In this document: in pieces, positions 846 through 28,834 of the stretch | Position numbering within the stretch: position 1 is the first letter of the stretch | How the letters are laid out: each line of letters begins with the position of its first letter | Source of the DNA: Candidatus Bathyarchaeia archaeon | Lineage (GTDB): Archaea; Thermoproteota; Bathyarchaeia; Bathyarchaeales; Bathycorpusculaceae | Reading direction: 5' to 3' | NCBI GenBank assembly: GCA_038883715.1 | Contig: JAVZLS010000014.1 | Coordinates: 1-34,554, forward strand | Length of the DNA: 34,554 nucleotides | Made by a program: the position numbers and the translations under genes | The notes under the pieces: generated by a model | What the model was told of the DNA's origin: nothing | Databases searched by the model: none | The model's input: the letters and a program-made list of their open reading frames with translations, nothing else

Positions 846-1115
846 TTAGCCTCCGCCTATGATGGGCATTATGAAAACTTTATCCAGGTCTTTAAGCTTG
901 GTTTTCAATCCCTTTAGGGTGTCTAGTGGTCTGCCATTCACGAGGATTGTAATGTTTTTCTCCTTGAAGTTTATTCTTAATCCCCTACTTTTCTCCAATT
1001 CTTGCAGGAGACTGGAGACGGTTGAGTCGGGTTTTAGGAGAACCCAAAAGTCTAAGGTGGACTCTTGCTGGGTTAGGCTTCTCATGCATGTCACACGGAC
1101 TTTTATAGGGTTCAT
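846..1115 (-). CDS. MoaD/ThiS/SAMP ubiquitin-like sulfur carrier protein
   Basis: 89 aa with beta-grasp hallmarks (ILVNGR, LKDLDKVFIMP) and a C-terminal GG; directly downstream of an AOR gene. Confidence 0.88.
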   Translation of the reverse strand: MNPIKVRVTCMRSLTQQESTLDFWVLLKPDSTVSSLLQELEKSRGLRINFKEKNITILVNGRPLDTLKGLKTKLKDLDKVFIMPIIGGG

Positions 1116-1141
1116 GAATTCTCTAGGTGGAAAATGAAGGA

Positions 1142-2995
1142 TTATTTTCTATAAAGCTTTTCAAGTTGCGCCGCAACGTCTTCGAGTCCAACTTCTTTTA
1201 ATTTCCTCTTTGTTGGGATACCCCTTTCATTCCAGCCTCTTGCCGCATAATAGTCCTTAAGTAGTATATCCAGCTCAAAAATTTGTCCTTCCGATGGTTT
1301 TCTTGGCACGGGTTCTTTCAATATTCTTTCCGGCAGGGTGTCGTAGCTTCCATCGATCCCTTCTCTAATGTTGAAGGCTCTTTCAATATTGAATATTCTT
1401 TCGCCGACAAGCCATAGATAATCTGGTGACTTAAATTCTTCAATGCCCGTTGCTGCATACAAAAGCTTGCTGTAGAGCTCCATAGTTATCATAAGATTGG
1501 TGAGTGGGAATTGGCAGAAAATGGCTGTTTCTGCAACTGCAAATTCGTCTTGAACCTTCTTTGTTAGTTGCGCCTTACCCTCAACACTAAATGGGTCAAC
1601 TCTTTCCGGAACCCCTATAATTTCATAGCTGTTCCATCCAATGGTGTGGCTTGCCCCTATAGGCGAAGTTGCCAGGCTTAAGCCGTGGGCTTTTGCCGAC
1701 CTGGGGTCGTAGGCTGGCGGCTCTAAACCTTTCACGTGCATGGCGTATTTCTCTGCTCCTCTGCCTATTATTTCGGCGGCTTTTCTAACACCCTCCGCTA
1801 AAATGTTTCCTATGCCTATTCGCAGGGCTATCCTTCTGACCATTTCAGGGAGGATTTCAGGGTCGCCCCAGCGGAGGCCCATTCCGTCGGTTTCGCTTTT
1901 GCCAATTATTCCTTTTTCATACAGTTCGATGGCGAATCCTATGGCTACTCCGGTTGATATGGTGTCCAAGCCATAAGAGTCCGCTAACATGTTGGCATAT
2001 TCAATAGACTCGATGTTTATGTTGCCTAGGTTTCCACCAAAAGCCCAGTGGGTTTCATATTCTGGCATCTCCCACGCCAGTCCTGCATAGGGGCCTTTGG
2101 TTAGTTTGAAGGTTTTCCAGCATCTCATCATGCAGCCAAAGCATCCTTTGTGCGCTATGACATAGCGTCCCAGCTCTTCCGGACGGAATCTTTCAACGCC
2201 TTCAAGCTCTTTTTGCTTTAAATTGTATGTTGGAAAATGACCTAAAGTATAGAAGAGGTAAACTATTCCGTCAGTCCCTAAGCTGCGGAACCCCTCCAAT
2301 GCTGGGTTACTTTTGTAAGTGTCTATCTGTTCCTTAACCGCTTCATCAAAGGCGTCTTGATCGTATATTTTTGGCCTTTTCGAGCCTTTGACAACTACGG
2401 CTTTCAAGTTTTTGCTTCCCATGACGGCCCCTCCACCGCCCCTAGAAGCCGTTCTAATGTCGTCTGTGACTATTGCGGCTAGTTTGACAAGTCTCTCTCC
2501 GGCGGGACCTATCATGGCTATTCTGGCATTTTTGTCAGTTTCTTCCAAAAGAAATTCCTTGGCGGCGTTTGTGGTCATGCCCCAAGCCTTTTCAGCGTCT
2601 CTAAATTCGATATTGCCACCGTTAATCCAGAGGTAAACTGGTTTTTGGGCTCTTCCTTCAATTATTATGGCGTCGTAGCCTGCAAATTTTAATTCAGCTC
2701 CGAAAAATCCCCCGCCGACGCTTCTAAAGTATGTTCCAGTTAGTGGAGATTTAAACTGTGCAATCCATCTGCTTGCAGACTGAACTTTAGTGCCAGCCAA
2801 TGGTCCCACGGTGAATACAAGTTTGTTTTCAGGTGATAGTGGATCTACTCCGACAGGTGTTTCGCTCCACAATATCCAAGCGCCGTAACCTCTTCCCCCT
2901 ATGAACCTTTTGATTACATTCATGTTCAGAGGTTCCATTGTCGCCTTTCTGTTTGTTAGGTTTATCCTTAAACTTTGGCCCATATAGCCATACAT
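1142..2995 (-). CDS. aor: Tungsten aldehyde:ferredoxin oxidoreductase family protein (copy 1)
   Basis: GYMGQSLRINLT, GGRG, KSPLTG, GAVMGSKNLKA, CFGCMMRC plus distal FCQF Fe-S ligands, PEYET, DSYGLDTIS; SD GGAGGG at 3003-3008. Confidence 0.95.
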   Translation of the reverse strand: MYGYMGQSLRINLTNRKATMEPLNMNVIKRFIGGRGYGAWILWSETPVGVDPLSPENKLVFTVGPLAGTKVQSASRWIAQFKSPLTGTYFRSVGGGFFGAELKFAGYDAIIIEGRAQKPVYLWINGGNIEFRDAEKAWGMTTNAAKEFLLEETDKNARIAMIGPAGERLVKLAAIVTDDIRTASRGGGGAVMGSKNLKAVVVKGSKRPKIYDQDAFDEAVKEQIDTYKSNPALEGFRSLGTDGIVYLFYTLGHFPTYNLKQKELEGVERFRPEELGRYVIAHKGCFGCMMRCWKTFKLTKGPYAGLAWEMPEYETHWAFGGNLGNINIESIEYANMLADSYGLDTISTGVAIGFAIELYEKGIIGKSETDGMGLRWGDPEILPEMVRRIALRIGIGNILAEGVRKAAEIIGRGAEKYAMHVKGLEPPAYDPRSAKAHGLSLATSPIGASHTIGWNSYEIIGVPERVDPFSVEGKAQLTKKVQDEFAVAETAIFCQFPLTNLMITMELYSKLLYAATGIEEFKSPDYLWLVGERIFNIERAFNIREGIDGSYDTLPERILKEPVPRKPSEGQIFELDILLKDYYAARGWNERGIPTKRKLKEVGLEDVAAQLEKLYRK

Positions 2996-3043
2996 GGAAG
3001 GACCCTCCTGAAGAAAGGTAGAAAGTGATTTCTAATTTGTAGT

Positions 3044-3060
3044 GTATTTAAATCTTTACG
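3044..3060 (-). promoter_or_regulatory. Putative BRE-TATA promoter of the aor-moaD unit
   Basis: Minus strand reads CGTAAAGA-TTTAAATA about 50 nt upstream of the ATG at 2995. Confidence 0.55.
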
Positions 3061-3129
3061 CGCCCTTCTGTTGCCTAAAAAGCGATTCAGCAGTGCTTCG
3101 CGGCAGATTTGTTTTCTCTTTGGCCAGAT

Positions 3130-3144
3130 GAAAAGATATAAAAA
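3130..3144 (+). promoter_or_regulatory. Putative BRE-TATA promoter of the dehydrogenase/hydratase and CoA-transferase unit
   Basis: GAAAAGA-TATAAAAA about 50 nt upstream of ATG 3193; SD GGTGA just before the start. Confidence 0.5.
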
Positions 3145-3192
3145 GTAGCTTGGATTAATGCAATTGAAATCTGTGCAACTTGGTGAGTTAGT

Positions 3193-5166
3193 ATGGAAAT
3201 AAAGAATGTTGCTATAATTGGTGCTGGCACAATGGGTTCTGCCATCGCCGAGGTGGTTGCATCTTATGGCTTTAATGTTAAACTTGAGGACGTGAGCGAG
3301 GAGATACTTAAGAAAGCTCTTGAAAGGATAAGGGATGGCCTAAAAAAGAGCTACGAGAGGGGATACCTCACCGAAGACATTGAAAACATCATAAACAGGA
3401 TCACCACTACCGTTAACATTGAAGAGGCTGTGAAAAATGCAGATTTAGTGATTGAAGCTGTGCCGGAAATACTTGATTTAAAAAGGAAGGTATTTGGTGA
3501 AGTCGATAGTTATGCTCCAAAGCATGCAATTTTAGCGTCCAACACCTCGTCCCTCAGCATCACCGAACTAGCCAAAGCAACAAGGAGGCCGGACAAATTT
3601 ATCGGAATGCACTTCTTCAATCCTCCTAAAATCCTTAAACTTCTTGAAATTGTGTGGGGGCAGGAAACCAGCGAAGAGACAGCAAGAGCAGTAGAAAATT
3701 TCGCTAGAAAAATAGAGAGGGTGATAGTCCACGTTAGAAAGGATGTTCCAGGCTTTGTTGTGAACAGAATATTCGTTACGATGTCCAATGAGGCGGCTTG
3801 GGCTGTGGAAATGGGCGAAGGAACAATCGAAGAGATAGACTCAGCAGTGAAGTACAGAATGGGTTTGCCAATGGGTTTGTTTGAGCTTCACGACGTTCTT
3901 GGAGGGGGCAGCATAGACATAAGCTATCATGTTCTAGAATATTTCAAAGAGAAACTTGGCGAAACCTATAGGCCAGCTCCACCATTTGAGAGGCTCTTCA
4001 AGGCAGGCCATTACGGAAAGAAGACTGGAAAGGGCTTCTACAACTGGGAAGGAGGAAAAATGAACGAAGTGCCTTTAAGAGCTGGGGCAAAATTTGATCT
4101 TCTTAGGCTTTTAGCCCCAGCGGTTAACGAGGCAGCTTGGCTCATCGAAAAGGGGGTTGCCACCCCAGAAGAGATAGACCTTGCAGTTTTAAATGGGCTT
4201 AACTATCCGCGGGGCTTGCTGAGGATGGCGGATGATGTTGGAATTGACAGAATAGTGGCTAAGCTCATCGAACTTTACGAGAAGTATAAGGAGGAAAGGT
4301 ATAGGGTTAATCCGGTGCTGCAAAAAATGGTTGAGGAGGGGCGACTCGGAAGAAAAACTGGAAAGGGCTTTTACAATTATGGAAGGGGTAACTACGAGTT
4401 TGTCTTGGTTGAGAAGGCTGACAAAATAGGAGTCATTAAGCTCAACAGACCCAGGAGAGCCAACGCTCTAAACATAACATTCCTAAAGGAAATTGAAGAT
4501 GCCCTTGAAATGTTAAGGGAAGATGAAGATGTACGAGTGGTTGTTATCACCGGTGTTGGGAGAAACTTCTGCGCAGGGGCGGACATATCAATGTTTGCAT
4601 CTGGAAACCCTGAGCAAGTAACAGAGTTCAGTCAAACGGGACACAAGGTTTTGAGAATGATAGAGCTTCACCCGAAACCGGTGGTTGCCGCAATTAATGG
4701 TCCAGCTGTGGGTGGAGGTTTTGAGCTTGCCATGGCATGTGATTTGAGAGTTATGAGCGAAAAGGCATTCCTTGCCCTTCCAGAGCTGGGTCTTGGAATA
4801 ACTCCGGGTTGGGGTGGAACCCAGAGGCTTGCCTACCTTGTCGGTGTTGGAAAGCTTAAAGAAATAATAATGCTTCGAAAGAATATTGACGCCTCCACAG
4901 CCCTTAATTTGGGAATAGTTTCAGAGATCTACAAAGCCGAAGAGTTTTGGGATAAAGCCCTAAAGTTTGCGGGCACCCTAGTTTCTCTACCACCTTTGGC
5001 TGTTAAATACCTCAAAAAGGTCATAGCCTATGGCGTAATGCCAACGCTGGAGGCTGGCTGCCTACTGGAATCAGAAGCTTCCGGAGATATATCCATCACG
5101 GAGGACGTTGCAGAGGGCCTCCAAGCCTTCATGTATGGGAGGCCACCAAACTTCAAAGGACGTTAA
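3193..5166 (+). CDS. Bifunctional 3-hydroxyacyl-CoA dehydrogenase / enoyl-CoA hydratase (archaeal order: dehydrogenase N-terminal, crotonase C-terminal)
   Basis: IIGAGTMG Rossmann motif, IEAVPE, ASNTSS, GMHFFNP, duplicated C-terminal 3HCDH domain, then crotonase motifs FCAGAD, GGGFELAMACD, PELGLG. Confidence 0.95.
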   Translation: MEIKNVAIIGAGTMGSAIAEVVASYGFNVKLEDVSEEILKKALERIRDGLKKSYERGYLTEDIENIINRITTTVNIEEAVKNADLVIEAVPEILDLKRKVFGEVDSYAPKHAILASNTSSLSITELAKATRRPDKFIGMHFFNPPKILKLLEIVWGQETSEETARAVENFARKIERVIVHVRKDVPGFVVNRIFVTMSNEAAWAVEMGEGTIEEIDSAVKYRMGLPMGLFELHDVLGGGSIDISYHVLEYFKEKLGETYRPAPPFERLFKAGHYGKKTGKGFYNWEGGKMNEVPLRAGAKFDLLRLLAPAVNEAAWLIEKGVATPEEIDLAVLNGLNYPRGLLRMADDVGIDRIVAKLIELYEKYKEERYRVNPVLQKMVEEGRLGRKTGKGFYNYGRGNYEFVLVEKADKIGVIKLNRPRRANALNITFLKEIEDALEMLREDEDVRVVVITGVGRNFCAGADISMFASGNPEQVTEFSQTGHKVLRMIELHPKPVVAAINGPAVGGGFELAMACDLRVMSEKAFLALPELGLGITPGWGGTQRLAYLVGVGKLKEIIMLRKNIDASTALNLGIVSEIYKAEEFWDKALKFAGTLVSLPPLAVKYLKKVIAYGVMPTLEAGCLLESEASGDISITEDVAEGLQAFMYGRPPNFKGR

Positions 5167-5221
5167 GACCTAAAAATAAAATGCCAAGAATGCGAACTGA
5201 TGTGAGGACGGTTTCGGAAGG

Positions 5222-6511
5222 ATGAAGCTGATTAAAAATCTCAGGAGGAAAAAAGCTCCCTTTTTCGCCCCTTCCTTTGGACCTTTAAGTGGTGTAAGGG
5301 TGTTAAGCGCCTCAAGTGTGGTTGCCGGGCCATTCATTGGCACATTGCTGGCCGATTACGGGGCAGAACTCATCCACATTGAAAATGTTGGCGGAGAAAC
5401 CCATAGAGAAGTAGGACCCTTTCTGGAAACTGATGAGAAAAGAGTGGGAGCAGAATATGCCGCCACCGTCAGAAATAGGCTCGATATCGCCCTCAATCTA
5501 AGGTCAGAGGAGGGGAAGGAAATCTTCTACGGCCTTATAAAACAATCTGACATTTTCGTTGAGAATCTGGTGTGGTTGGAGGAGAGATTTGGAATATCAG
5601 ATGAGCAGATGTTGAAGGTTAATCCAAGGATAGTTATTGTCCACGTTAGCGGGTATGGAAAATCGAGGTTTGGAGGAGACCCTGAAAAGTGCTCCCGGGC
5701 GTCTTACGACATTATTGCGCAAGCCTATTCTGGTTGGAGTAGAGCGTTTATGGCTCCTAAGGACGATGTGATTAGAATACCATTCTATACAGCGGACTAT
5801 ATTACAGCCCTTTTTGGGGCTGTTGGGGCTTTAGCCGCGTACATTCATGCGCAGAAAACTGGGGAGGGACAAGTAGTTGATGTCGCCCAATTTGAAACTG
5901 TGGCAAGAGTTCTGGAGTATTATTATTCGCTTTATTTTAACTTGAATGGTTATGCAGATTGGCGGGGCTATGAAAAGAAACACCCCAACACACAACCTTA
6001 TGGATTATATAAAGCGAAGGACGGGTGGATAGCACTAGGCGCTGTAGGTCCAAACGTTTACAGCAGATTTCTTGAGGCATTAGCCAAGCTTACTGAAATA
6101 AATCCGGAGGATTTTCCATACGAGGAATGTCAATCACGTGAATCGCCCAAAGGAAGCAAGTTGGACAAGATGGTGAGCGAATGTCTCATGAAGTATACTA
6201 GAGAGGAGCTTGAGAATCACTTCTCCAAGTGGCGGGTACCATGTTCCCGCGTTTCCACGCCAGAAGATGTGATTAAAGATAGCCACTGGCTTCAGCGGGG
6301 AAACATTGTAGAAGTTTTAGAAATGACAACTGGTAAAGTGATAAAGCAGATGGGGGTAGTCCCAAAATTCTCGAAGACGTCTGGTAGGGTGTGGAGAGGT
6401 GTTCCGCGGATAGGCGAGGATACGATAAGGATTCTGAAGGAACTGCTAGAGTTAAGTGACGAAGAAATTGCCAGTTTAAAAGAGAAGGGTGTAATAGACT
6501 TTCCAAAGTAA
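5222..6511 (+). CDS. CoA-transferase family III (CaiB/BaiF-like)
   Basis: FGPLSGVRV, AGPF, GAELIHIEN, SYDIIAQAYSG, catalytic Asp in FYTADY, GEGQVVDVA, PYGLYKAKDG. Confidence 0.93.
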   Translation: MKLIKNLRRKKAPFFAPSFGPLSGVRVLSASSVVAGPFIGTLLADYGAELIHIENVGGETHREVGPFLETDEKRVGAEYAATVRNRLDIALNLRSEEGKEIFYGLIKQSDIFVENLVWLEERFGISDEQMLKVNPRIVIVHVSGYGKSRFGGDPEKCSRASYDIIAQAYSGWSRAFMAPKDDVIRIPFYTADYITALFGAVGALAAYIHAQKTGEGQVVDVAQFETVARVLEYYYSLYFNLNGYADWRGYEKKHPNTQPYGLYKAKDGWIALGAVGPNVYSRFLEALAKLTEINPEDFPYEECQSRESPKGSKLDKMVSECLMKYTREELENHFSKWRVPCSRVSTPEDVIKDSHWLQRGNIVEVLEMTTGKVIKQMGVVPKFSKTSGRVWRGVPRIGEDTIRILKELLELSDEEIASLKEKGVIDFPK

Positions 6512-6532: not shown

Positions 6533-7873
6533 CTATGCCTTCGTAAGGGTTATTGCTTTGGCTGGGCAGACCATAACGCATAGTCCACAGCCAATACATC
6601 TATCTGAAACTTTCACAGTTTCGTTTTCCATGTAAAGCGCAGTGCATATGTTGTCGATGCACGTCTTGCACAACGTGCACTTTGCCGGGTCCACTTGAGC
6701 TCTTGCCTTAATGTCAACGGCCGCGTCGGCGGTTCTAAGATGTTCAATTCCTTCTTTCCGCATTTCTTCTATGCTGCTGTAACCTTGTTCGTCCATGAAT
6801 TTTCTGATAAACTCTAACTCTGACTTTAGGAGGCGTATGCCCTTAAAGAATATAGCTGCGCACTGTCCGGTGGCTTTTGCACCCAACATTATCATTTGGA
6901 TGACATGTTCTGCGTTCATTATGCCTCCCATGGCGAGAACATCCAATTCTGGAACATACATGCTGAGGGCTGCCACATGCTTGCGTATTATAGGTCTTAG
7001 TGGTTCGCCACCATATCCAATGAATGGATTTCCATCGGTGAAGGGCAGCGTTGTTTTCCCTCCATTGTAGATGTCTGGCGGAGGAACTGTTACACCCATG
7101 TTTGCCGTCGTGATAAAGGAGGCGCCTGCCTGTTTCACACGCCTGCCAATCTCCACAACCCTTGGAAAGCCAGTTTCGGGAGTAAGCTTAACCCCCACTG
7201 GAATGCTTACTGCTCGAACAACCTCTTTAACCACTTTCTCTAAGAATTCTGGCGAATCACCCATGATTGCGCCCATGTTTGAGAATATGAATTTTCCCTC
7301 TAGGAAAGCGTCGATGTTCCCCTTTACAGTGGCGAAAAACGGACATGAAACATTCAGCTCAATCATGTCAAAGCCAACTTCTTCCGCCTTTTTGGATGCT
7401 ATGGCGAAGGCTTCAGGGTCAGCGGCAGCTTCAATGTTAGCGATTAGGGGGACGTCTGGAGGCTTTTTTTCTTGCAACATTTTAATTATTGGCAATTTAA
7501 GCTCCAGAGATTTTGCAAAACCTTCGATGGGGATGCCGTAAGGTCCCATTGCACCTAACCTGTGAAGGAAGGTTCCCTCCCCATCTTTCATCCATCGTCT
7601 TACAGGCTCTCCGCCAAAATACTTCCTTATGATTCGTCGCCACTCCTCCGCTTCAACTTCCTTCTTCTTCCTTTGAACGAATTCCTCCGGCATGTGGCCG
7701 AGGGCTCCCACTGAAATATATCCAGCTCCGGCATCGGTGGACTTAAGGAGTATTTTGGCAACCATCTCGTCTGGAATTGCTCTCCCCATAAAGGTTGCAA
7801 TGGCTCCAACCCCAATTGGTGATGGAAGCGTTACTCCCGCAAAATTAACACTTAATTTATCATCTCTCTTCAT
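6533..7873 (-). CDS. Divergent dihydropyrimidine/dihydroorotate dehydrogenase-family flavoprotein (PreA-like) with C-terminal 2x[4Fe-4S] domain
   Basis: LSVNFAGVTLPSP, IELNVSCP catalytic loop, VKLTP, GYGG, AMGGI; C-terminal CTLCKTCIDNIC and CIGCGLCVMVCP. Confidence 0.85.
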   Translation of the reverse strand: MKRDDKLSVNFAGVTLPSPIGVGAIATFMGRAIPDEMVAKILLKSTDAGAGYISVGALGHMPEEFVQRKKKEVEAEEWRRIIRKYFGGEPVRRWMKDGEGTFLHRLGAMGPYGIPIEGFAKSLELKLPIIKMLQEKKPPDVPLIANIEAAADPEAFAIASKKAEEVGFDMIELNVSCPFFATVKGNIDAFLEGKFIFSNMGAIMGDSPEFLEKVVKEVVRAVSIPVGVKLTPETGFPRVVEIGRRVKQAGASFITTANMGVTVPPPDIYNGGKTTLPFTDGNPFIGYGGEPLRPIIRKHVAALSMYVPELDVLAMGGIMNAEHVIQMIMLGAKATGQCAAIFFKGIRLLKSELEFIRKFMDEQGYSSIEEMRKEGIEHLRTADAAVDIKARAQVDPAKCTLCKTCIDNICTALYMENETVKVSDRCIGCGLCVMVCPAKAITLTKA

Positions 7874-7947: not shown

Positions 7948-9771
7948 CTAGATGTCAAGATCTTTCAATTTCCGCTCTGATGGGACGCCTTCAGACGTCC
8001 ATCCTCTGAGCTCATAATATTCCCTCATCATTAAGTCCATATCTGGAACATGCCGAAGGGTGCCGCCGTCTTGAGGTTCCAAAAATCTTTTCGGAAGTAC
8101 ATCATCCTTCGAGGAGATTCCCCATCTGCAATTAAGAATTCTTTTAAGGTTGAATGATCTTTCCCCGGTTTTCATGAACTCGTCTATGCTCATCGCTCTG
8201 CCAGTAACCAACTCGTAGAACCTTAAGAGCTGTGTAAGTGTCAGACCAGCCGAGGATGCATATTTGCAGACCACTAGTAAGTCGTAAACCTCCATCATGT
8301 CCTGCATCTTCTTAACAAGGAAGGCTTTACTTCTCGACTCAAACCTGTCAGTTTGCACGGTTATGCCAATTTCTGGAACCAGTCTCCCCCTATCCGGGTT
8401 GTGGGGCCACGCAAGGTGACATGCACCCCTATTCATTGTGGCATAACTTAATGCTTGACCGAAAAAGGCTCTGGGATTGTGTGCCGGCGCCTCTAACCCT
8501 TTTACGTGCAGGGCGAAGGCTTCGCTCCCCTTACCTAACCTTTTAGACGCTTCCCGCACCCCTTCAGCCAGTAAGTCCCCCACGCCCTTTCTATTTGCTA
8601 TAAGCTCTATCAGTTTCAGTATGTTTTCAGACGGGCCCCATCTAAGTTCCAGTCCTCCAGTATCCTCTTTTGTTATAATTCCTTTCTCATATGCTTCTAT
8701 TGCAAATGCTATAACCCCGCCAGTTGATATTGTATCCATTCCTAGACGGTTACAGAGGTCATTTGCCTTCGCGATTAGCGAAAGGTCGTCATTAAGCAGG
8801 TTTGAGCCCAACATGCATAAGGTTTCAAACTCTGGGCCATCCGCCCTAAGATTTGTATATTTTCCTTCTTTTATGTGCACTGTTCTTTTGCACCCAATAA
8901 CACAGTTGCAGCAAGGAGTCACTTTATCCAAAATTGTTTCTGTTATCCTTTTACCACTAATTTTCTCTATTTTGTCCTCTTCCCAGACGCCCTCGCTGTG
9001 ATTTTTTATCGGAATGTTGCCCATGTAATAGTAGGCTTCCATTCCGCCTCCCGTGCCGAATTTGCGGAGGCCTTGAGCGGCAGGATTTTTTGACAGTTGA
9101 GTTTGAACCTCTGCTGCAAATTTTTTAAGTTCCGCTTCCTTTGCGACTGAAATTTTCCCTGTTCCTTTAACGGCGATTGCCTTCAAGTTTTTAGAGCCCA
9201 TAACTGCGCCTATTCCAGCTCTGCCAGCCTTTCCAACATCACAAATTATGGATGCATACTTCACTAAGTGTTCGCCAGCGGGCCCAATAGCAGCTATTTT
9301 AACCGCCTTGTCTCCAAGCTCGCCTTTAATAATCCAGTATGTTTCATAAACGTCCTTGCCCCACAGTTTTTCGGCGTTTCTAAATTCAACTTGGTCATCA
9401 TTTATCCATAGGTATTTGGGCTTTTCCGCCCTACCCATAATTATGACTGCATCGAACCCTGCCTTCTTTAAGTGTTGTCCAAACATTCCTCCGGCATGGG
9501 ACTCTCCCCAAATTCCCAGCGGGGACCTAGCGCATATAGAAAGCCGCCCGCTAGACGGTGTTGGGGTGCCCGTTAATGGCCCCGTGGCAAAGATAAGCAA
9601 AGATTCAGCATCTAATGGGCCTATTTCGCTGGGCATTTCGTCATAAATTATCTTTGCGGCTAGTCCTGAACCGCCAATGTATTTCTCTGCTATTTCGTTT
9701 GGGAGGTTTTCTATTGAGAAATTCTCATCCGTTAAGTTAACTCGCAAAATTTTCCCCATGTAACCGAACAT
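7948..9771 (-). CDS. aor: Tungsten aldehyde:ferredoxin oxidoreductase family protein (copy 2)
   Basis: GYMGKILRVNLT, GAVMGSKNLKA, CCNCVIGC, GPEFET, LGMDTIS, NRGACH, distal LVVCKY. Confidence 0.95.
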   Translation of the reverse strand: MFGYMGKILRVNLTDENFSIENLPNEIAEKYIGGSGLAAKIIYDEMPSEIGPLDAESLLIFATGPLTGTPTPSSGRLSICARSPLGIWGESHAGGMFGQHLKKAGFDAVIIMGRAEKPKYLWINDDQVEFRNAEKLWGKDVYETYWIIKGELGDKAVKIAAIGPAGEHLVKYASIICDVGKAGRAGIGAVMGSKNLKAIAVKGTGKISVAKEAELKKFAAEVQTQLSKNPAAQGLRKFGTGGGMEAYYYMGNIPIKNHSEGVWEEDKIEKISGKRITETILDKVTPCCNCVIGCKRTVHIKEGKYTNLRADGPEFETLCMLGSNLLNDDLSLIAKANDLCNRLGMDTISTGGVIAFAIEAYEKGIITKEDTGGLELRWGPSENILKLIELIANRKGVGDLLAEGVREASKRLGKGSEAFALHVKGLEAPAHNPRAFFGQALSYATMNRGACHLAWPHNPDRGRLVPEIGITVQTDRFESRSKAFLVKKMQDMMEVYDLLVVCKYASSAGLTLTQLLRFYELVTGRAMSIDEFMKTGERSFNLKRILNCRWGISSKDDVLPKRFLEPQDGGTLRHVPDMDLMMREYYELRGWTSEGVPSERKLKDLDI

Positions 9772-9839: not shown

Positions 9840-10208
9840 TCACTTTTTGGCTCTCTGTCTAATGGATTTCTCGTCTCCAGGCGGAGTATAAACCCATAGA
9901 AATTGGAGTTCCTCTTCGCCGGCATTTTCAAGAGTGTGAATCTCGTTGGGAGCTAAGTAGACAACGTCGCCGGGCTCCAATATTTGTTGATCATTTCCGC
10001 TTGAAACCTTAGCCTTCCCCTTAAGTATGAAGATTGTCTCCTCGCCTGTATGAGCATGAGAGGCACCTTTCTCTCCAGCAGGGTACATTGTAAAGCCCAT
10101 TGCTACATGTTTTGACCCAATAACAGGATCCATCATTATTTTAGTCACTTTCCTTGATGGTGGCGGCGCCGGGAAAACCGGAGCGCTTTCTTTTCTGACA
10201 ATTATCAT
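9840..10208 (-). CDS. Monocupin domain protein
   Basis: Cupin metal motifs HAHTGEETIFILKG and PGDVVYLAPNEIH; SD GGAGG. Confidence 0.9.
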   Translation of the reverse strand: MIIVRKESAPVFPAPPPSRKVTKIMMDPVIGSKHVAMGFTMYPAGEKGASHAHTGEETIFILKGKAKVSSGNDQQILEPGDVVYLAPNEIHTLENAGEEELQFLWVYTPPGDEKSIRQRAKK

Positions 10209-10221
10209 TTATCTTCCTCCA

Positions 10222-11037: not shown

Positions 11038-11051
11038 TTTCCGGTCTCCAA

Positions 11052-17105: not shown

Positions 17106-17173
17106 AAGTTCTCCCACAGACGGAGAGTAGTGGCAAATCCAACAAATATAAGACTTATGGAATGATTATAGGT

Positions 17174-18436: not shown

Positions 18437-18595
18437 TATTTTTCCTCCATTATCGGCGGTGGCGTTATTTTGTTTAAAATCAAATTTTATAAAACTTTTC
18501 ATTGGCTGTTTTGTGATACTTTAACGTACGTTTGGGCTATTATCCAAAAATTTTATATGAATTCCGTTCAAAGTGCTACTAAAAGGTGATTAGTT

Positions 18596-19852
18596 ATGAA
18601 GAAGAATTTGGCGTTGACTTTAAATGTGATCCTAATCTTAACCATGGCTTCTCCTTTCCTACTTTCAGCTAAGGTTGCACGATGCTCTCCAGCAAGGGAG
18701 ATTCCTGCCATAGTCTCAACCGATTGGCTATATAACAACCTCAATACAGGCTTAGAAGGCCTTGTGGTGCTTGATGTTAGGAGCCCAGATTTATATAACG
18801 TGGGGCATATTCCTGGGGCAATTAACTTTCCCGACTATTTATGGTACGTTAATCCGCCCTTTGGAGACAATTTTCCATGGATGGAAATGCCTCCACAAGA
18901 CTACCTTTTCGAGTTGATAGGCAATGCCAGCATAACAAGCAATTCCAAAGTAGTTATTGTAGGGAGTACAAGTGGACCGCTTTCTCCGCTGCCCTTAGCC
19001 TTGTACAGTACAGGTGGCATAACAAGGGTTGCTATGACGCTGCTTTATGCTGGAATTGAAAATGTTGCTATCCTGGATGGTGGATACGAGAAATGGGTGG
19101 ATGATGGATATCCAACTGAAACTGCACCCCACGTCCCTACCCCCATAACATATAGCGGCACATTGAAGAGCGGCATGATTGTTTCCAAAGAATATGTTGC
19201 AAGCAAAATTGGAAGTGCCATAATCGTGGATAGCAGAGACCTCGAAGTTTATCTAGGCTTTATACAAGAGCCTTGGACCGCGAGAGTCGGCCACATTCCA
19301 ACAGCGAGGAGTTTTCCAACACCATGGGTTTGGAGTATAAACCTGAACGAAACAAGCGGCGAAGCAATTTACATAACATACAAAGACGCCGATTTTCTTG
19401 AAGCCCTAGCCGGGTACATAGTTGGAACCAACAAATCAGAAGAGGTAATTGTTTACTGCGGTGTCGGCGGGTACGCCAGTACTATGTACTTCGTGCTAAG
19501 CGAGGTGCTCAACTACACAAACGTGAAAGTTTATGATGGTTCAGCACAAGAATGGACAAGCGACATGAGTCTACCAGTGGTCCATGAGGGTTTAGGCTCC
19601 GAGTACATGGAGCTTTATGACAACTATACAGAACTTCAAGAGGACTACAACCGGCTTCGAAATGATTTTGATGCGCTTCAAGATGATTATGACCAGCTTC
19701 AAGACGATTACAACGAGCTTTTAAATAAATATGAAGAGTTAACCAAAACAACCACGCCAGCCTACTTAACATATACATTCATTGCGACCACCATAATATT
19801 CCTGCTGATATCCATATATCTCGGAATTAAAGTGAGAGGCAAAAAACCTTAA
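18596..19852 (+). CDS. Secreted, C-terminally membrane-anchored tandem-domain rhodanese/sulfurtransferase with coiled-coil stalk
   Basis: N-terminal signal peptide (MKK plus hydrophobic stretch), VSTDWL, GHIPGA, ILDGG, GHIPTA, active site VYCGVGGY, VYDGSAQEW, heptad repeats, C-terminal TM and basic tail. Confidence 0.88.
   Translation: MKKNLALTLNVILILTMASPFLLSAKVARCSPAREIPAIVSTDWLYNNLNTGLEGLVVLDVRSPDLYNVGHIPGAINFPDYLWYVNPPFGDNFPWMEMPPQDYLFELIGNASITSNSKVVIVGSTSGPLSPLPLALYSTGGITRVAMTLLYAGIENVAILDGGYEKWVDDGYPTETAPHVPTPITYSGTLKSGMIVSKEYVASKIGSAIIVDSRDLEVYLGFIQEPWTARVGHIPTARSFPTPWVWSINLNETSGEAIYITYKDADFLEALAGYIVGTNKSEEVIVYCGVGGYASTMYFVLSEVLNYTNVKVYDGSAQEWTSDMSLPVVHEGLGSEYMELYDNYTELQEDYNRLRNDFDALQDDYDQLQDDYNELLNKYEELTKTTTPAYLTYTFIATTIIFLLISIYLGIKVRGKKP
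19610..19735 (+). repeat. Six degenerate 21-bp tandem units encoding heptads of the xLQDDYN type
   Basis: gagctttatgacaactataca / gaacttcaagaggactacaac / cggcttcgaaatgattttgat / gcgcttcaagatgattatgac / cagcttcaagacgattacaac / gagcttttaaataaatatgaa. Confidence 0.8.
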
Positions 19853-24793: not shown

Positions 24794-26137
24794 TCATTTA
24801 TATACGCCGAACCTTTTTGTAGCGTCTATCATAGCCTTGAGGTTTTCTGGTTTCGCCTTGTCTACTACTGCACCGTTCATAACTATGAAGCCTCCGCCTT
24901 CACCACATGTTTCAATAAGCTTTTTGACGTATTTCTCCACTTCTTTGGGGGTTCCTACACTTAATAACGCGCTTGGGACGTTACCGGCTATGCAGGCGAC
25001 GTCGCCTATCATTTCTTTAGCCTTAGCCATGTCGGACTGGTCGAAGCCCCAAAGAGTTTTACCCTTTGGCAGATCATTTTTGATAAGTTCGAGGCGGGTG
25101 TTATAGCCGCCTTCAGCATAAAGGAATGGCACACAGCCTTCATCTATTAAGCCCATCATAACTTTCTTTAAAGTTGGCCAATAGAACTCCTCAAATTGTT
25201 TGTTAGAGATAAAGCCGTCTGCCCCCTTGTGCAATGGAATAAAAACTATTGGGTTTCCATTGGCTTTCGCTCCAGAGGCCCCCATTCTAATCATAAGCGG
25301 GGTGAAAACTTCCATGGCTTGCTTGAGCTTGTCAGGGCGTTTGTACATGTCCAACATTATGCCTTTAGTTCCCCTTAATGTATCGCCTAAAGTGTCGAAA
25401 GGTGCTTTGGTGCCGCCTCCGAAGAGGTTTGGAAAACCTGCGGCAGTTATCTCCCTATCCCAAGAAACAACATGTCCTATCCAGTTTAATGCCTCATTAC
25501 CCGCTTCCATCAGAGCTTTAAGGGCAGCTTGGACATCTGGCATGCCAAAAACAATGAAATTGACTGGCGTAAAACCTCCATACATTTCAAGCACGTTGGT
25601 GAAGGGTGGTAGTTTACTGAAAGGTTGCAGAGCCCCAAACACCCGTGGGAAATACTTAGTCAAGAAGAAGTATGTTGGATCTTGGATCAGATCGTCGTAT
25701 TCTTCAGATTTCATGTATTCTCCTTCAATGCACTGATAGGAGTATTCTGGGGCTACGCCGTGGCCGGGCCAAGCATACAATTTGTAGTCGAGGATTTCGA
25801 AGAATCTTCCTGGGCCCGGCCCTATAGCACCGGCGTGGGCGTCTGGTTCGAAGTCTAAAACGTATTTTCTGAACGCCATTTTGAGTTTCTCGTAGTCGTA
25901 CATCATGTCGTAGGGTGTCAGTCCCACGTAGTATGCAGGGAAAAAGCCTATTAGCGGGAAAACCGGAACTCTGTCTGGCAGCTTCCTAAGTTGGATGGCA
26001 TCTTTTATTCTAGTCACCCTCGCCTTGTAGGCTTCTTCAGCTTTTTCGTTGGCAAACTTTACCGGAGGGGAAAGCCAACGTTTAAACAACGTCTCTCGTC
26101 TTTCCTCTGGTGATAAGTTCTCCCATTTTACTTCCAT
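24794..26137 (-). CDS. UroD/MtaA-superfamily corrinoid methyltransferase, probably O-demethylase methyltransferase I (MtvB/MtoB/MtgB-like)
   Basis: AIQLRKLPDRVPV, EYMKSEEYDDL, APFD...DTLRG, FIPLH, FEEFYWP, AEG, CIAGNVP, GGGFI; directly downstream of a corrinoid protein. Confidence 0.82.
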   Translation of the reverse strand: MEVKWENLSPEERRETLFKRWLSPPVKFANEKAEEAYKARVTRIKDAIQLRKLPDRVPVFPLIGFFPAYYVGLTPYDMMYDYEKLKMAFRKYVLDFEPDAHAGAIGPGPGRFFEILDYKLYAWPGHGVAPEYSYQCIEGEYMKSEEYDDLIQDPTYFFLTKYFPRVFGALQPFSKLPPFTNVLEMYGGFTPVNFIVFGMPDVQAALKALMEAGNEALNWIGHVVSWDREITAAGFPNLFGGGTKAPFDTLGDTLRGTKGIMLDMYKRPDKLKQAMEVFTPLMIRMGASGAKANGNPIVFIPLHKGADGFISNKQFEEFYWPTLKKVMMGLIDEGCVPFLYAEGGYNTRLELIKNDLPKGKTLWGFDQSDMAKAKEMIGDVACIAGNVPSALLSVGTPKEVEKYVKKLIETCGEGGGFIVMNGAVVDKAKPENLKAMIDATKRFGVYK

Positions 26138-26164: not shown

Positions 26165-26803
26165 TTATGCGGCTCCAATCCATTTTTTGGCCAAGGCTAC
26201 AGCTTCGATTGCATCTTTGCCATAAGCGTCAGCGCCTGTGTATTTTCTCACCTCTTCGGTTATTTGTCCGCCTCCAATCATGATTTTTACTCTGTCTCTC
26301 AAGCCAGCCTTTTTTATGGCTTCCACTGTTTGTTTCATGACATCAAAAGCCAACGTTAGGAAACCGCTTAAGCCTACTATTGTGGCCTCTGTCTCTTTTA
26401 TTTTTTCGACAAATTTTTCTGGTGGGACATCTACTCCTAAGTCGTAGACTTCAAATCCGTTGGCTTCAAGCATGAAGACAACCATGTTTTTGCCTATGTC
26501 ATGTATATCTCCGGCAACGGTCCCAATAACAACTTTCCCTAAACGTTTAGCCTCGACTTTTCCGGCCAGTTTTGGTTTGATTTTTTCGGTTATCGCCTTC
26601 AGTAATTCACCGGCAAATAAAAGGTCTGAAATGAAGTATTCACTTTTGGCGAATCTGTCTCCCACAATCTCCATGGCGCGGCGGACATCATCTAAAATTT
26701 TAAGCGGGTCTTCGCCAGCATTAAGCCTTTTCTCAACCAGTCGAAGTGCTTCTTCCTCTTTTAAATCGGCTAGTGTATTGATAAAATCTTCAGAGTTCCC
26801 CAT
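26165..26803 (-). CDS. Corrinoid (B12-binding) methyl-carrier protein
   Basis: N-terminal cap domain, GTVAGDIHDIGKN (DxHxxG), DLGVDV, VGLSG, MIGG. Confidence 0.95.
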   Translation of the reverse strand: MGNSEDFINTLADLKEEEALRLVEKRLNAGEDPLKILDDVRRAMEIVGDRFAKSEYFISDLLFAGELLKAITEKIKPKLAGKVEAKRLGKVVIGTVAGDIHDIGKNMVVFMLEANGFEVYDLGVDVPPEKFVEKIKETEATIVGLSGFLTLAFDVMKQTVEAIKKAGLRDRVKIMIGGGQITEEVRKYTGADAYGKDAIEAVALAKKWIGAA

Positions 26804-26938
26804 AAGATTCCCTCGCCGCGTTCTCGCTAATATTTTAGAGCATCAAATAAAAAGCTTGCTCAATTCCTTAACCAATTAATATGACGCGCAAAAAATTAAT
26901 TTATTTAATTGGCAAAATTGAACCTTCAAGATGAAAGT

Positions 26939-28834
26939 ATGAAGAAAATTATCACAATTTTGTTTGAGCCGGAAGGCCGCAAGGCAGAGGTTCAGTTTGG
27001 AATTAGCATATTTGAAGTTGCGCGTATGGTGGGTGTTGGCCTTAGGTCTGAATGTGGAGGGAAGGGTGTCTGCGGAAAATGTAAGGTTATAGTTCCGGAT
27101 AAAAAATCTGTTTCAGAAGTAACAGAAGCTGAGAGAAGGCATTTAACCACGGAGGAGATAGAATCTGGCTATAGGCTTGCGTGCCAAGCACTCCTAAAGA
27201 AAAGCGCAACCATAATGATACCTGAAGAAAGTAGAATTTTGGCACGTAAAATCCAAGTTTTTGGCTTAGAGAGACCTGTACTGTTGAATGTTTTTGTTAA
27301 AAAGTTTCATGTAAAATTGGCTAAGCCTACGCTTATGGATGTTAGACCAGACTTTGAAAGGGTTTTGGATGTTTTGAAAGTTGAGGCTGATGTTGGTGAA
27401 TTAGAAGTTGATTATGATGTTTTGAAAGTTTTACCCGAAACTCTTCGACGTGCCAATTGGGATGTTACCGTAGCCCTATGGAACTGCCAAAAAATAATTG
27501 CGATAGAGGAAGGCGACACGTCTGATCGCGTTTTTGGAGTAGCCATTGACATTGGAACTTCAAAAATTGTTGGGTGTCTCGTGGACTTGAAATCGGGCAA
27601 AACCATAAGTACGGGGTTTATTGAGAACCCTCAAATTCTGTATGGTGAAGACATTATTTCGAGGATAGATTTTGCAGCGAATGAGGAGAAGGGATTGGAA
27701 AGGCTGCAGAAACTTGTTTTGGACGGCATAAACCATGTAATATCCTACATTTGTGCTCAAGCGAGTGTGAATGCAGATAACGTTTACGAGGCGACGGTTG
27801 TCGGTAACACAGCTATGCACCACTTTTTTCTGGGTATAAATCCAAAATATACGGCCTTTTCGCCTTTCACACCTGCCATTAAACGTCCAATAAATGTTAA
27901 GGCTGGGGAATTGGGCATAAAAATATGTAAAGGCGGCAATGTTCACGTTTTGCCAATTATAGCTGGATTTGTGGGTGCTGACGCGGTTGCGGATGTGCTG
28001 GCAAGCGGGATTCATACGCGAAAGGAAATATCTCTTCTCCTCGACATTGGCACGAACACTGAAATTTTTGTTGGAAATTCAGAGGACATTCTATCTTGCT
28101 CTTGTGCCTCTGGACCTGCCTTTGAAGGCGCCCATATAAGGCATGGAATGAAGGCGGTTACCGGGGCAATTGAAAAAATATCCATAGATCCAACTTCAGG
28201 CTACGAGGTGAAGTATAAAACCATAGGCGACGCGGCTCCTCTTGGGATATGTGGCTCCGCCATAATAGACGCCGTGGCGGAAATGTTGAAGTGTGGGATA
28301 ATAAACAGCAGAGGAAGATTTAACTTGAATGTAAAGACGCCAAGACTGAGAGTTGTTGATGGGACTCCTGAATTTGTGCTTGTATGGCGAAGCGAAAGCG
28401 GAACTGGTAAAGAAATAGTGATCACTCAGAAGGACGTGGGCGAGGTGCAGCTGGCGAAGGCAGCGATATTTGCAGGATGCTGGATCTTAATGAAGAGGAA
28501 AAACGTAAAAGTAAATGACATAGATCAGCTTCTGATCGCGGGCGCCTTTGGAAGCTACATAAATCCTGAAAATGCAAAGTTAATAGGATTGGTGCCCGAT
28601 GTCCCGGTTGAAAAAGTGAAGTTTGTAGGTAACACGGCACTGGCTGGTGCGAAAATGGCTTTAATCTCAGCAGAAGAAAGGGAAACAGCAGAAAAACTGT
28701 CAAAAAGTATCCGTTACCTTGAGCTTGCAAGTGATCCAGATTTTCAATTAGAGTTTGCAGAAGCTGCGTTTCTACCCCACAAAGATTTGGATAGATTCCC
28801 ATCACTAAAAAAATTCTTAAAAAAGTGTAAATAA
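26939..28834 (+). CDS. ATP-dependent reductive activator of corrinoid proteins (RACE/RACo type; [2Fe-2S] plus ASKHA)
   Basis: CGGKGVCGKC...RLACQ, GVAIDIGTS, GNTAMHH, DIGTNTE, GPAFEG, GICGS, QLAKAA, AGAFG. Start likely ATG 26939 (track: TTG 26909). Confidence 0.93.
   Translation: MKKIITILFEPEGRKAEVQFGISIFEVARMVGVGLRSECGGKGVCGKCKVIVPDKKSVSEVTEAERRHLTTEEIESGYRLACQALLKKSATIMIPEESRILARKIQVFGLERPVLLNVFVKKFHVKLAKPTLMDVRPDFERVLDVLKVEADVGELEVDYDVLKVLPETLRRANWDVTVALWNCQKIIAIEEGDTSDRVFGVAIDIGTSKIVGCLVDLKSGKTISTGFIENPQILYGEDIISRIDFAANEEKGLERLQKLVLDGINHVISYICAQASVNADNVYEATVVGNTAMHHFFLGINPKYTAFSPFTPAIKRPINVKAGELGIKICKGGNVHVLPIIAGFVGADAVADVLASGIHTRKEISLLLDIGTNTEIFVGNSEDILSCSCASGPAFEGAHIRHGMKAVTGAIEKISIDPTSGYEVKYKTIGDAAPLGICGSAIIDAVAEMLKCGIINSRGRFNLNVKTPRLRVVDGTPEFVLVWRSESGTGKEIVITQKDVGEVQLAKAAIFAGCWILMKRKNVKVNDIDQLLIAGAFGSYINPENAKLIGLVPDVPVEKVKFVGNTALAGAKMALISAEERETAEKLSKSIRYLELASDPDFQLEFAEAAFLPHKDLDRFPSLKKFLKKCK

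Follow-up and report, generated by a model that had tools for sequence, protein, structure and literature searches.

A hot-spring genome of the Bathyarchaeia (G000; 1.33 Mb in 41 contigs, estimated 90% complete) contains a contig of 34,554 bp (C14) that we analysed over its complete length and refer to below as the window. About 29 kb of it (~42-28856) is an accessory island that is absent between tRNA-Ser and tRNA-Phe in a genome of the same genus. The island encodes a long UroD-type corrinoid methyltransferase (MT1) together with a corrinoid protein and a reductive activase (RACo), an ABC importer of the HAAT type, a secreted rhodanese, two aldehyde:ferredoxin oxidoreductases (AOR1 and AOR2), an iron-type alcohol dehydrogenase (Fe-ADH) and a set of beta-oxidation enzymes. 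The co-location of these genes exceeds chance, as they are inherited together as a set that could not be found in 58 other relatives. Our reading, held with somewhat less than even confidence, is that of a mobile catabolic island in which an import-and-demethylate core is joined to an AOR/ADH and beta-oxidation extension, with a methoxylated lignin-derived aromatic as the likeliest substrate. The island suggests that more than the methyl group is used from plant-derived methoxylated compounds. Bathyarchaeia are among the most abundant anaerobes and, in the available parts of the literature, their proposed role in lignin use so far rests on methyl-group harvesting alone; the island makes it testable with named genes whether more than the methyl group is used.

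An earlier note on this DNA had proposed that the region links import, methyl transfer, alcohol and aldehyde oxidation, CoA activation and beta-oxidation in the anaerobic use of methoxylated phenylpropanoids. The linkage of the modules is borne out by the results below; nothing in the sequences identifies an aryl-propanoid substrate, and an aromatic, phenylpropanoid compound stays plausible. Every component named there was recovered at its position by the ORF (open reading frame) listing and the Pfam and NCBIfam scans. The two AORs of the region are confirmed and the window holds a third one. A PreA-like flavoprotein, a cupin, a creatininase-family protein, a U32-like protein, an Ldh_2 enzyme, the secreted rhodanese and a MoaD-like protein had to be added to the list.

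Island borders and co-inheritance

The borders were mapped by DNA searches in five same-genus genomes and by local BLAST. Window positions 1-39 are 100% identical to the 3' end of the tRNA-Ser(GCT) gene. In the same-genus genome G004, 13 bp separate this tRNA-Ser end from the counterpart of window 28857-29292, a segment with a 100-aa ORF and tRNA-Phe. Since both flanks are only 13 bp apart there, window ~42-28856 is an insertion relative to G004, with limits that nearly coincide with the interval delimited in the earlier note. From 30022 onwards the window DNA is 84-92% identical in all five congeners. The third AOR and its ferredoxin (AOR3) show 91-98% amino acid identity in G004, G008 and G013 and 30-33% to AOR1 and AOR2; because the pair is conserved across the genus it is not island DNA. 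The right junction is spanned by a contig of an independent hot-spring run (X3 record 21, 28326-29244). Run X1 is possibly the source sample and hence was not counted, and two runs labelled metatranscriptomic are probably DNA.

At the same site in G013 only a LivM-like gene (69% aa identity) and RACo (95% aa identity) remain. They adjoin tRNA-Ser (L002, G013:C2 7028-9976) without MT1 and look like a decayed island remnant. In G004 tRNA-Phe is followed by ~5.4 kb of unrelated DNA (L001, G004:C1 7058-7132 and 12563-12601). At its end this stretch repeats the 3' part of tRNA-Phe (window 29263-29303) as a 90% copy, and it resembles a separate element that integrated at this same tRNA-Ser/tRNA-Phe hot spot. 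For the island itself the reading as a self-mobile integrative element was rejected: Pfam found no integrase domain among the window ORFs, and a repeat search found no copy of the tRNA end (window 1-45), and thus no att repeat, elsewhere within the window. The base composition of the region gave no island signal. Horizontal acquisition of the island is part of our overall reading and is proposed with the same reserve.

Co-inheritance was followed in 61 genomes, namely G000 and 60 relatives, 13 of them from the same genus. MT1 (E <= 1e-20) occurs in 7/61 genomes and in 0/13 of the same-genus ones, with close orthologues only in G017 (82%) and G025 (79%). These two are also the only relatives with the island thiolase at >= 80% identity (80-84%); a thiolase at E <= 1e-60 is found in 52/61 genomes, those beyond G017 and G025 being 37-46% paralogues. 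The fusion of 3-hydroxyacyl-CoA dehydrogenase and enoyl-CoA hydratase (HCDH-ECH; E <= 1e-150) is present in 3/61 genomes, among the 60 relatives only in G017 and G025, and the rhodanese (E <= 1e-30) in the identical three. AOR1-type proteins (E <= 1e-180) were found in 6/61 (G000, G002, G017, G018, G025, G054) and the U32-like protein (E <= 1e-20) in 4/61 (G025 at 83%, G038 and G057 at 47%), with none in G017.

Both G017 and G025 belong to genera other than that of G000, and the island genes are clustered there in shuffled order. In G025, ~20 kb of a single contig holds 15 island orthologues, rearranged and with other housekeeping genes as neighbours: MoaD, AOR1, corrinoid protein, MT1, rhodanese, an HMG-CoA synthase-like domain fused to DUF35 (HMGS-DUF35), thiolase, HCDH-ECH, CoA-transferase, U32-like, creatininase-like, cupin, AOR2, Ldh_2 and RACo. 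G017 has 14 orthologues, with the thiolase on a separate contig; a single contig holds HCDH-ECH, rhodanese, MoaD, AOR1, RACo, corrinoid protein, MT1, five transporter genes and the start of HMGS-DUF35. The earlier note had named a lack of co-conservation among the modules as a result that would speak against it. Since the genes are re-clustered in two other genera such a lack is refuted for the methyltransferase module, the importer, AOR1, HCDH-ECH and the thiolase pair, which travel together. The CoA-transferase, the acyl-CoA dehydrogenase (ACAD) and the PreA-like gene fared differently and are not conserved in most sister loci.

Table 1. Features of the window, called from an ORF listing with Pfam and NCBIfam scans
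Feature	Position	Strand	Evidence
tRNA-Ser(GCT) 3' end, left border of the island; contig begins inside the gene	1..45	+	98-100% identity, three same-genus genomes
205-aa protein, no family	1..615	-	no Pfam/NCBIfam match
MoaD/ThiS-like small protein, downstream of AOR1	846..1115	-	PF02597 E 3.3e-9
AOR1, tungsten-type aldehyde:ferredoxin oxidoreductase	1142..2995	-	AFOR_N, AFOR_C
Bifunctional HCDH (N-terminal)/ECH (C-terminal) fusion	3193..5166	+	Pfam 3HCDH_N, 3HCDH, ECH_1
Family III CoA-transferase	5222..6511	+	PF02515 E 1.9e-98
PreA/DHODH-like flavoprotein, C-terminal 4Fe-4S domain	6533..7873	-	Pfam/NCBIfam
AOR2, second aldehyde:ferredoxin oxidoreductase	7948..9771	-	Pfam and nearest solved structures
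Cupin, creatininase-family (IolN-like) hydrolase and U32-like protein	9840..11975	-	Pfam/NCBIfam
Ldh_2-family 2-hydroxyacid dehydrogenase	12080..13132	-	PF02615 E 1e-123
SCP-x/archaeal-type thiolase	13252..14445	+	NF004810, 501 bits vs cut-off 403
HMGS-like domain fused to DUF35	14446..15855	+	Pfam and alignment
Fe-ADH, iron-type alcohol dehydrogenase	15942..17117	-	Pfam/NCBIfam
ACAD, acyl-CoA dehydrogenase	17174..18502	-	four ACAD Pfam domains
Secreted, membrane-anchored two-domain rhodanese	18596..19852	+	signal-peptide-like N-terminus, C-terminal TM helix
HAAT substrate-binding protein (N-terminal membrane anchor)	19985-21292	+	Pfam/NCBIfam
LivH permease	21373-22194	+	Pfam/NCBIfam
LivM permease	22184-23221	+	Pfam/NCBIfam
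LivF ATPase	23196-23942	-	Pfam/NCBIfam
LivG ATPase	23887-24633	-	Pfam/NCBIfam
MT1, long UroD-superfamily corrinoid methyltransferase	24794..26137	-	PF01208
Corrinoid (B12-binding) protein	26165..26803	-	B12-binding, B12-binding_2
RACo-type reductive activase	26909..28834	+	RACo_C_ter, Raco_middle, RACo_linker, Fer2; AcsV model 532 bits
100-aa ORF and tRNA-Phe, right border, core DNA	28857..29291	+	directly after tRNA-Ser in G004
AOR3 and ferredoxin, outside the region	30738-33169		conserved in genus

The methyltransferase core and its relatives across phyla

MT1 has 447 aa and is the product of the genome's sole URO-D-family gene (PF01208, 79 bits, cut-off 23.9). Among solved structures it comes closest to CdmB (9rui, E 3.6e-37, aligned over residues 203-446, with weaker N-terminal stretches that align too), followed by MtaA (8.5e-4). 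The URO-D fold and the kinship to CdmB assign it to the long UroD-type MtvB/MtoB/CdmB group, in agreement with the earlier note. In its available parts the CdmB paper assigns CdmB to the UroD superfamily, where it stands alongside the O-demethylases MtvB, OdmB, VdmB and MtoB. By eye, in Supplementary Data 3 of that paper as far as available, the window motif KAPFDTLGDTLRG (13 residues) is unchanged in MtvB, and MtoB and CdmB differ. More than 6,000 database proteins match MT1, the named matches reaching ~82% in Bathyarchaeia, 73% in Dehalococcoidia, 66% in Actinomycetota and 65% in Asgard archaea, and the ESM Atlas gave 'URO-D family' clusters only. Homologues are abundant in Syntrophorhabdus, an anaerobic aromatic degrader, and also in Dehalococcoidia and Desulfobacteraceae.

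We computed a quick maximum-likelihood tree of MT1 with 76 rows, made up of the window and 75 loci; L018 and L058 had been excluded because of stops and L048 because its cover was short. In this tree the window groups with the 11 bathyarchaeal sequences in one clade (SH-aLRT 100). This clade is nested in a 37-row clade (99) of bacterial sequences, next to Dehalococcoidales (85), and the 37 rows span Chloroflexota, Thermodesulfobacteriota, Spirochaetota and Bathyarchaeia. A bacterial origin of the bathyarchaeal MT1 appears likely but is unproven because the tree was rooted arbitrarily on one distant row. The words Bathyarchae, Dehalococcoid and Chloroflexota appear in none of the rows in the supplements of PMC13222342, and for this reason the published tree does not place the MT1 clade.

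The locus search with MT1 homologues returned 78 loci, on which the window proteins were scored by tblastn (Table 2). The corrinoid protein accompanies MT1 in all bathyarchaeal loci, and in the window both it and RACo are adjacent to MT1. Pfam scans further revealed single-strand bacterial operons in L020, L027, L031 and L038. The operon of L020 (Thermodesulfobacteriota) begins with Fe-ADH, AOR, a small ORF, the substrate-binding protein (SBP), LivH, LivM, LivG and LivF and continues with rhodanese, corrinoid protein, MT1, a ~230-aa protein, RACo and a pterin-binding methyl-corrinoid:pterin methyltransferase (MT2); the other three are variants of it. The importer-methyltransferase-AOR-ADH core thus recurs as bacterial operons. 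Core operons occur in metagenome-assembled genomes (MAGs) of Dehalococcoidia, Desulfobacterota-like bacteria and Spirochaetota from peat, soil and hot springs, and their presence in several bacterial phyla points to an unstudied, possibly widespread pathway.

Table 2. Window genes found beside MT1 homologues (flanks up to +/-10 kb, many cut by contig ends; 77 loci counted, the partial unclassified archaeal locus L048 being left out)
Gene beside MT1	Bathyarchaeia	Other loci, MT1 >= 56%	Loci, MT1 < 56%
Corrinoid protein	13/13	19/25	21/39
LivG/LivF	9/13	10/25	5-6/39
SBP	7/13	8/25	0/39
AOR	5/13 (AOR1-type)	7/25	0/39
Rhodanese	4/13	5/25	0/39
RACo	6/13	9/25	4/39
HMGS-DUF35	6/13	0/25	0/39
Thiolase	4/13	0/25	0/39
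HCDH-ECH	2/13	0/25	0/39

Several of these loci carry additional genes. L027 adds an IclR regulator and a three-subunit enzyme of the xanthine-dehydrogenase family, which scores highest with the model for 4-hydroxybenzoyl-CoA reductase alpha (725 bits, cut-off 995; next model 569). Weaker 4-hydroxybenzoyl-CoA-reductase-like matches are found in L014 and L041, where large and small subunits of the xanthine-dehydrogenase family, which are molybdenum enzymes, lie at 4717-7086 and 2164-4900, respectively. An AMP-forming CoA ligase adjoins MT2 in L008 and L014 and, by gene size and place, in L018 too. Another molybdenum enzyme, a DMSO-reductase-family protein, lies with its 4Fe-4S partner in the sister island of L008 (G017:C6 1149-4147). 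The ~230-aa protein between MT1 and RACo (L020:11372-12055, L038:11409-12110) has no Pfam/NCBIfam match and is absent from the window. Homologues (28-37%) of the 205-aa protein at the left end of the window adjoin the SBP or rhodanese gene in L014 and L018.

With regard to the methyl acceptor, no pterin-binding MT2 was found in the genome, and its sole MtrH gene (C1:95234-96064) lies inside an MttB cluster. In five sister loci (L008, L009, L010, L014, L018) a ~307-aa gene comes right after MT1, which is MtrH by Pfam scan in L008, L009 and L014 and by size and position in L010 and L018. The MtrH of C1 may serve MT1 in trans. A gene for CdhC, the acetyl-CoA synthase subunit, is located on C5. 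The MttB cluster itself (G000 C1 91.5-99.5 kb, L086 5483-13502) comprises three MttB-family genes, two corrinoid proteins, MtrH and an aminotransferase, and upstream of it we observed a BKACE gene and an amino-acid permease.

The HAAT importer named in the earlier note is confirmed: by Pfam it has a Peripla_BP_6 SBP, two BPD_transp_2 permeases and two ATPases, one of them with the BCA C-terminal motif, and it is the only HAAT set in the genome. What had to be revised is its layout, as the ATPase genes lie on the opposite strand, where they follow the genes for the corrinoid protein and MT1 downstream in the same direction. The gap after MT1 is 160 bp in the window, and LivG starts ~20 bp past MT1 in L011 and L013; the same arrangement is seen in sister loci. 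In L011 and L013 the ATPases are probably co-transcribed with MT1.

The N-terminus of the rhodanese is signal-peptide-like, to which the archaeal forms add a coiled-coil stretch and a C-terminal membrane helix. Its motif IVYCGVGGYAS, with the active-site cysteine, is invariant across the archaeal and bacterial operon members, which are 43-67% identical (genes compared: window 18596-19852, L020:8313-9263, L027:14564-15523, L031:7923-9044). No secreted rhodanese was found in the known O-demethylase systems that we compared from the literature.

Oxidoreductases, thiolase complex and beta-oxidation set

AOR1 has true AORs as its nearest solved relatives (9mqx 1.3e-142, 1aor 1.3e-133). AOR1 and AOR2 align with AOR structures over their full length at 1e-121 to 1e-142 and with BamB at 7e-59 and 2e-62 over the N-terminal ~420 residues only, and a role as BamB-type ring reductase was therefore ruled out. 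AOR1 orthologues (70-74%) adjoin MT1 in 5/13 Bathyarchaeia loci and are accompanied by a MoaD-like gene in L008, L011, L041 and L042; an AOR2 orthologue (73%) lies in the G025 cluster and a PreA-like orthologue (80%) adjoins AOR1 in L013. Fe-ADH orthologues (74%) adjoin HMGS-DUF35 in L009 and L010, and a Zn-ADH adjoins HMGS-DUF35 and thiolase in six Bathyarchaeia loci.

The cupin/creatininase-like/U32-like trio is the part best conserved between G000 and G025 (80-87%); its U32-like gene was not found in G017 and we regard the trio as an optional sub-module. The creatininase-like protein is nearest to the model of the ring-opening hydrolase IolN (215 bits against a cut-off of 245), and Ldh_2, with a 66% orthologue in G025, reaches 328 bits in the sulfolactate-dehydrogenase model against a cut-off of 500. 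The Zn-ADHs of sister loci weakly match IolM, which together with the IolN-like hydrolase may hint at a cyclitol-type side route. Two further readings were dropped. Phloroglucinol/ring hydrolysis by the creatininase-like protein does not fit its family, as DPGC belongs to the 'cyclase' family and the island hydrolase to the creatininase family; a general Pfam scan of the window ORFs brought up no gene of the phloroglucinol reductase type. UbiU/V-type anaerobic hydroxylases require four cysteines for their Fe-S cluster, and the U32-like protein has one cysteine only and a marginal Pfam match.

The protein described earlier as a thiolase partner is in fact a catalytically dead HMG-CoA-synthase/DUF35 fusion. 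Its HMGS-like domain matches archaeal HMGS (6esq, 7.6e-37) and PhlA about equally well. In the available text of PMC12960953 the HMGS catalytic tetrad is given as Glu-Cys-His-Asn; in 5/5 island-type sequences Glu is replaced by Thr and Cys by Ile/Leu, His is lost and Asn is kept. The housekeeping DUF35-HMGS on C1 retains the catalytic Cys. This housekeeping mevalonate pair (L087 2497-5271) consists of a thiolase and of DUF35 placed N-terminal to HMGS, the reverse of the island order.

The island thiolase has its motifs intact in comparison with 6esq, namely CAS (CxS), HDCF (HDxF) and GHP (GHx), and is nearest to archaeal acetoacetyl-CoA thiolase (2.2e-53) and BbsB (1.2e-41), with PhlC at 1.5e-21. 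It is thus predicted to be catalytically competent and of the degradative type, as had been proposed. With its fused inactive HMGS-DUF35 and a thiolase carrying CxS, HDxF and GHx the island pair is of the PfACAT type. The PfACAT/HMGS-DUF35 complex cleaves acetoacetyl-CoA and makes no HMG-CoA according to the available text (PMC12960953, 2026). Because this class combines a dead HMGS with an intact thiolase, the island pair points to a degradative thiolase complex and not to mevalonate biosynthesis, with HMGS-DUF35 as the presumed scaffold of the thiolase. A PhlACB-type Friedel-Crafts acylase is unlikely, since such acylases lack HDxF (PMC12960953, available in part) and the island thiolase keeps it and lies nearer to archaeal acetoacetyl-CoA thiolase (ACAT) and BbsB than to PhlC. 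The enzymes of the beta-oxidation set look short-chain and generic; the nearest solved structure of the CoA-transferase is CaiB (3e-54), and the genes for EtfAB are on C2, where they neighbour a second beta-oxidation set.

Proposed pathway, its rivals and known systems

We propose that the membrane-anchored HAAT binding protein and the permeases face the secreted rhodanese and that MT1 would demethylate the imported substrate and load its methyl group on the Co(I) that the corrinoid protein carries; RACo would re-reduce the corrinoid following accidental oxidation. An MtrH-type MT2, in trans here and beside MT1 in sister islands, could pass this methyl unit on to tetrahydromethanopterin (H4MPT), from where it would enter the archaeal acetyl-CoA pathway. 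The two AORs and the ADH may interconvert the alcohol, aldehyde and acid of the same substrate or product. In an extension specific to Bathyarchaeia the acid would be converted to its CoA ester and then shortened by C2 units, with family III CoA-transferase, ACAD, HCDH-ECH and the thiolase held by the inactive HMGS-DUF35 as its parts. The likeliest substrates would be methoxylated, lignin-derived aromatic alcohols, aldehydes or acids. A methoxy-aromatic is favoured because of the family of MT1, the 4-hydroxybenzoyl-CoA-reductase-like and CoA-ligase neighbours and the taxa that hold homologues.

A number of observations weigh against this proposal. The same A. fulgidus genes are up on H2/CO2, which the authors read as mixotrophy in the available part of PMC8359953, and CdmB acts on haloalkanes and not on methoxy-aromatics, with several clades of the superfamily lacking an assigned substrate in the available part of its paper. 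Of the methyl-transfer module in the earlier note MT1, the corrinoid protein and RACo stand, and no MT2 was found in the island. The AORs are not BamB-like, and we found no ring-reducing or decarboxylating enzymes in the island. The best solved relatives of the SBP are urea and Leu/Ile/Val binders at E 3e-7 or weaker, and it shows no kinship to the solved aromatic-acid binders with which it had been associated. Demethylation of an aryl methyl ether yields a phenol, for which neither ADH nor AOR is needed; the conserved link of ADH and AOR would be better explained by an alkyl methyl ether or by an aromatic aldehyde or alcohol with methoxy groups. The models closest to HCDH-ECH are those of 3-hydroxybutyryl-CoA dehydrogenase (374 bits, cut-off 408) and short-chain crotonase, and the sole tested complex of this thiolase class cleaves acetoacetyl-CoA (PMC12960953, available in part). 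Among the 13 sister loci ACAD has no orthologue and the CoA-transferase a single one (61%, G025). The strand switches about seven times across the region and gene order is shuffled between genera. Finally, the conserved secreted rhodanese has no role in the proposed scheme.

Some of these points fit an island with the same methyl-transfer logic and a substrate other than a methoxy-aromatic, such as an alkyl methyl ether, a methylthio-alkanoate, a methionine-derived aldehyde or alcohol, an N-methyl amino acid or a haloalkane. We consider this unlikely, if still a serious candidate. Demethylation of an alkyl methyl ether would yield an alcohol, the exact input of an ADH-AOR-CoA-beta-oxidation series, and would explain why ADH and AOR occur in MT1 operons of several phyla. 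The beta-oxidation enzymes have a short-chain, aliphatic look, amino acids are the classical ligands of HAAT binding proteins, the conserved secreted sulfurtransferase-type rhodanese hints at sulfur chemistry and CdmB, in the published part at hand, shows that the family is not confined to aromatic ethers. Against this, MT1 is by eye most like MtvB, the vanillate enzyme, 4-hydroxybenzoyl-CoA-reductase-like genes lie in three loci and the homologues are abundant in the taxa named above, Syntrophorhabdus foremost. In the literature we found no corrinoid system of the MT1 family for alkyl ethers or methylthio-acids, and a gas such as chloromethane needs no ABC importer.

It is also conceivable, though we think it improbable, that there is no common pathway and that independent modules are linked only physically on transferred DNA: an import-demethylate unit, a generic short-chain beta-oxidation set, AORs for aldehydes of amino-acid fermentation and an unrelated hydrolase/cupin set. 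The roughly seven strand changes and the shuffled order would agree with this, as would the variable sub-modules (the U32-like set not found in G017; ACAD, PreA-like and CoA-transferase rarely conserved), the other beta-oxidation sets and 7 AORs of the genome and the absence of the beta-oxidation set from all 64 non-bathyarchaeal loci. Yet the linkage persists through extensive rearrangement in three genera and about ten further MAG loci, which is not expected without selection; island-type thiolase, HCDH-ECH and rhodanese were never found without MT1 in the 60 relatives, and AOR and ADH are linked to MT1 in bacteria as well. That the thiolase/HMGS-like pair is a housekeeping mevalonate complex, leaving the locus without a beta-oxidation thiolase, is scarcely credible and was rejected: a score of 228 bits (cut-off 244) with the model for archaeal HMG-CoA synthase and the nearest solved structure, an archaeal thiolase/HMGS/DUF35 complex, would suit it, but each of the five island-type sequences has other residues in place of the catalytic Glu, Cys and His, a separate thiolase and DUF35-HMGS with intact Cys lie on C1, and the island pair is absent from 58/60 relatives, which keep housekeeping paralogues.

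Returning to import and demethylation coupled to oxidation of a methoxylated aromatic, a wider version of this proposal may be formulated, which we rate as rather unlikely. The uncharacterised 37-row long-UroD MT1 clade would define a widespread anaerobic 'import, demethylate, oxidise' regulon (HAAT, rhodanese, AOR, ADH) that Bathyarchaeia acquired a single time from bacteria and welded to beta-oxidation. If this were correct, the archaeon would reach beyond the methyl groups to the side-chain carbon skeleton of methoxylated plant-derived compounds, the extracellular rhodanese would represent a new, sulfur-dependent step of substrate capture and the thiolase complex would have been repurposed from the mevalonate type. 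The conserved secreted rhodanese and the dead-HMGS thiolase complex are in any case leads in their own right.

We found no description of the MT1-importer-AOR-beta-oxidation linkage in the literature, and its parts can be compared with several known systems, most of them through sources available in part. For the beta-oxidation extension one such system is PfACAT/HMGS-DUF35 of Pseudomonas fluorescens (PMC12960953), where a fused HMGS-DUF35 without the tetrad likewise stands beside an intact thiolase; that complex is bacterial, whereas the island copy is archaeal, lies within a catabolic island and retains the Asn of the tetrad. In Sulfolobus acidocaldarius, as far as published text was available, Saci_1109 has the same HCDH(N)-ECH(C) order and forms with Saci_1114 (thiolase), Saci_1123 (ACAD) and Etf a full cycle as in G000, but that set serves fatty acids and the island set is linked to a methyltransferase. 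BbsAB of the benzylsuccinate operon (BbsA-H) is a DUF35-associated thiolase like that of the island (PMC12960953). The island scores far under the Bbs cut-offs (BbsB 165 against 750 bits, BbsA 30 against 250) and its dehydrogenase is of the HCDH type. The Bbs operon also contains a family III CoA-transferase, an ACAD, a hydratase and a dehydrogenase that match island parts.

For the core, the chloromethane system CdmBCA of Acetobacterium dehalogenans has the same three-part logic and in CdmB the nearest solved relative of MT1; it differs in its small haloalkane substrates, the lack of an importer and the pterin-binding CdmA as MT2, as far as its paper is available. MtgB/MtgC/MtgA of Ca. Baizosediminiarchaeum ligniniphilus is a corrinoid system from Bathyarchaeia for which methoxy-aromatics have been proposed as substrates, and its MT2 is MtrH-like. 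In the available text MtgB has ~300 aa, no homology to known MT1s and no activase found with it, whereas the island has a UroD-type MT1 of 447 aa with RACo, so that MtgB, which the earlier note had named for comparison, is a protein of another kind. MtoABCD of Methermicoccus shengliensis and A. fulgidus and MtvABC of Moorella thermoacetica have in common with the island a long UroD-type MT1, RACo and a corrinoid protein that binds B12. In sister islands MT1 is directly followed by an MtrH-type MT2, and the 13-residue motif common to the island MT1 and MtvB (by eye) is a further resemblance. The Mto/Mtv systems use an MFS transporter, whereas the island has a HAAT ABC importer with its ATPase genes behind MT1, attaches a secreted rhodanese, AORs, an ADH and a beta-oxidation set, and is missing MT2. 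MtoABC-like clusters have already been reported in Bathyarchaeum tardum and lagoon MAGs (sources available in part), and an Mto-type system in Bathyarchaeia is for that reason not new in itself. Taken together, the island is a variation on the known Mto/Mtv-type systems, and one that is real and co-inherited.

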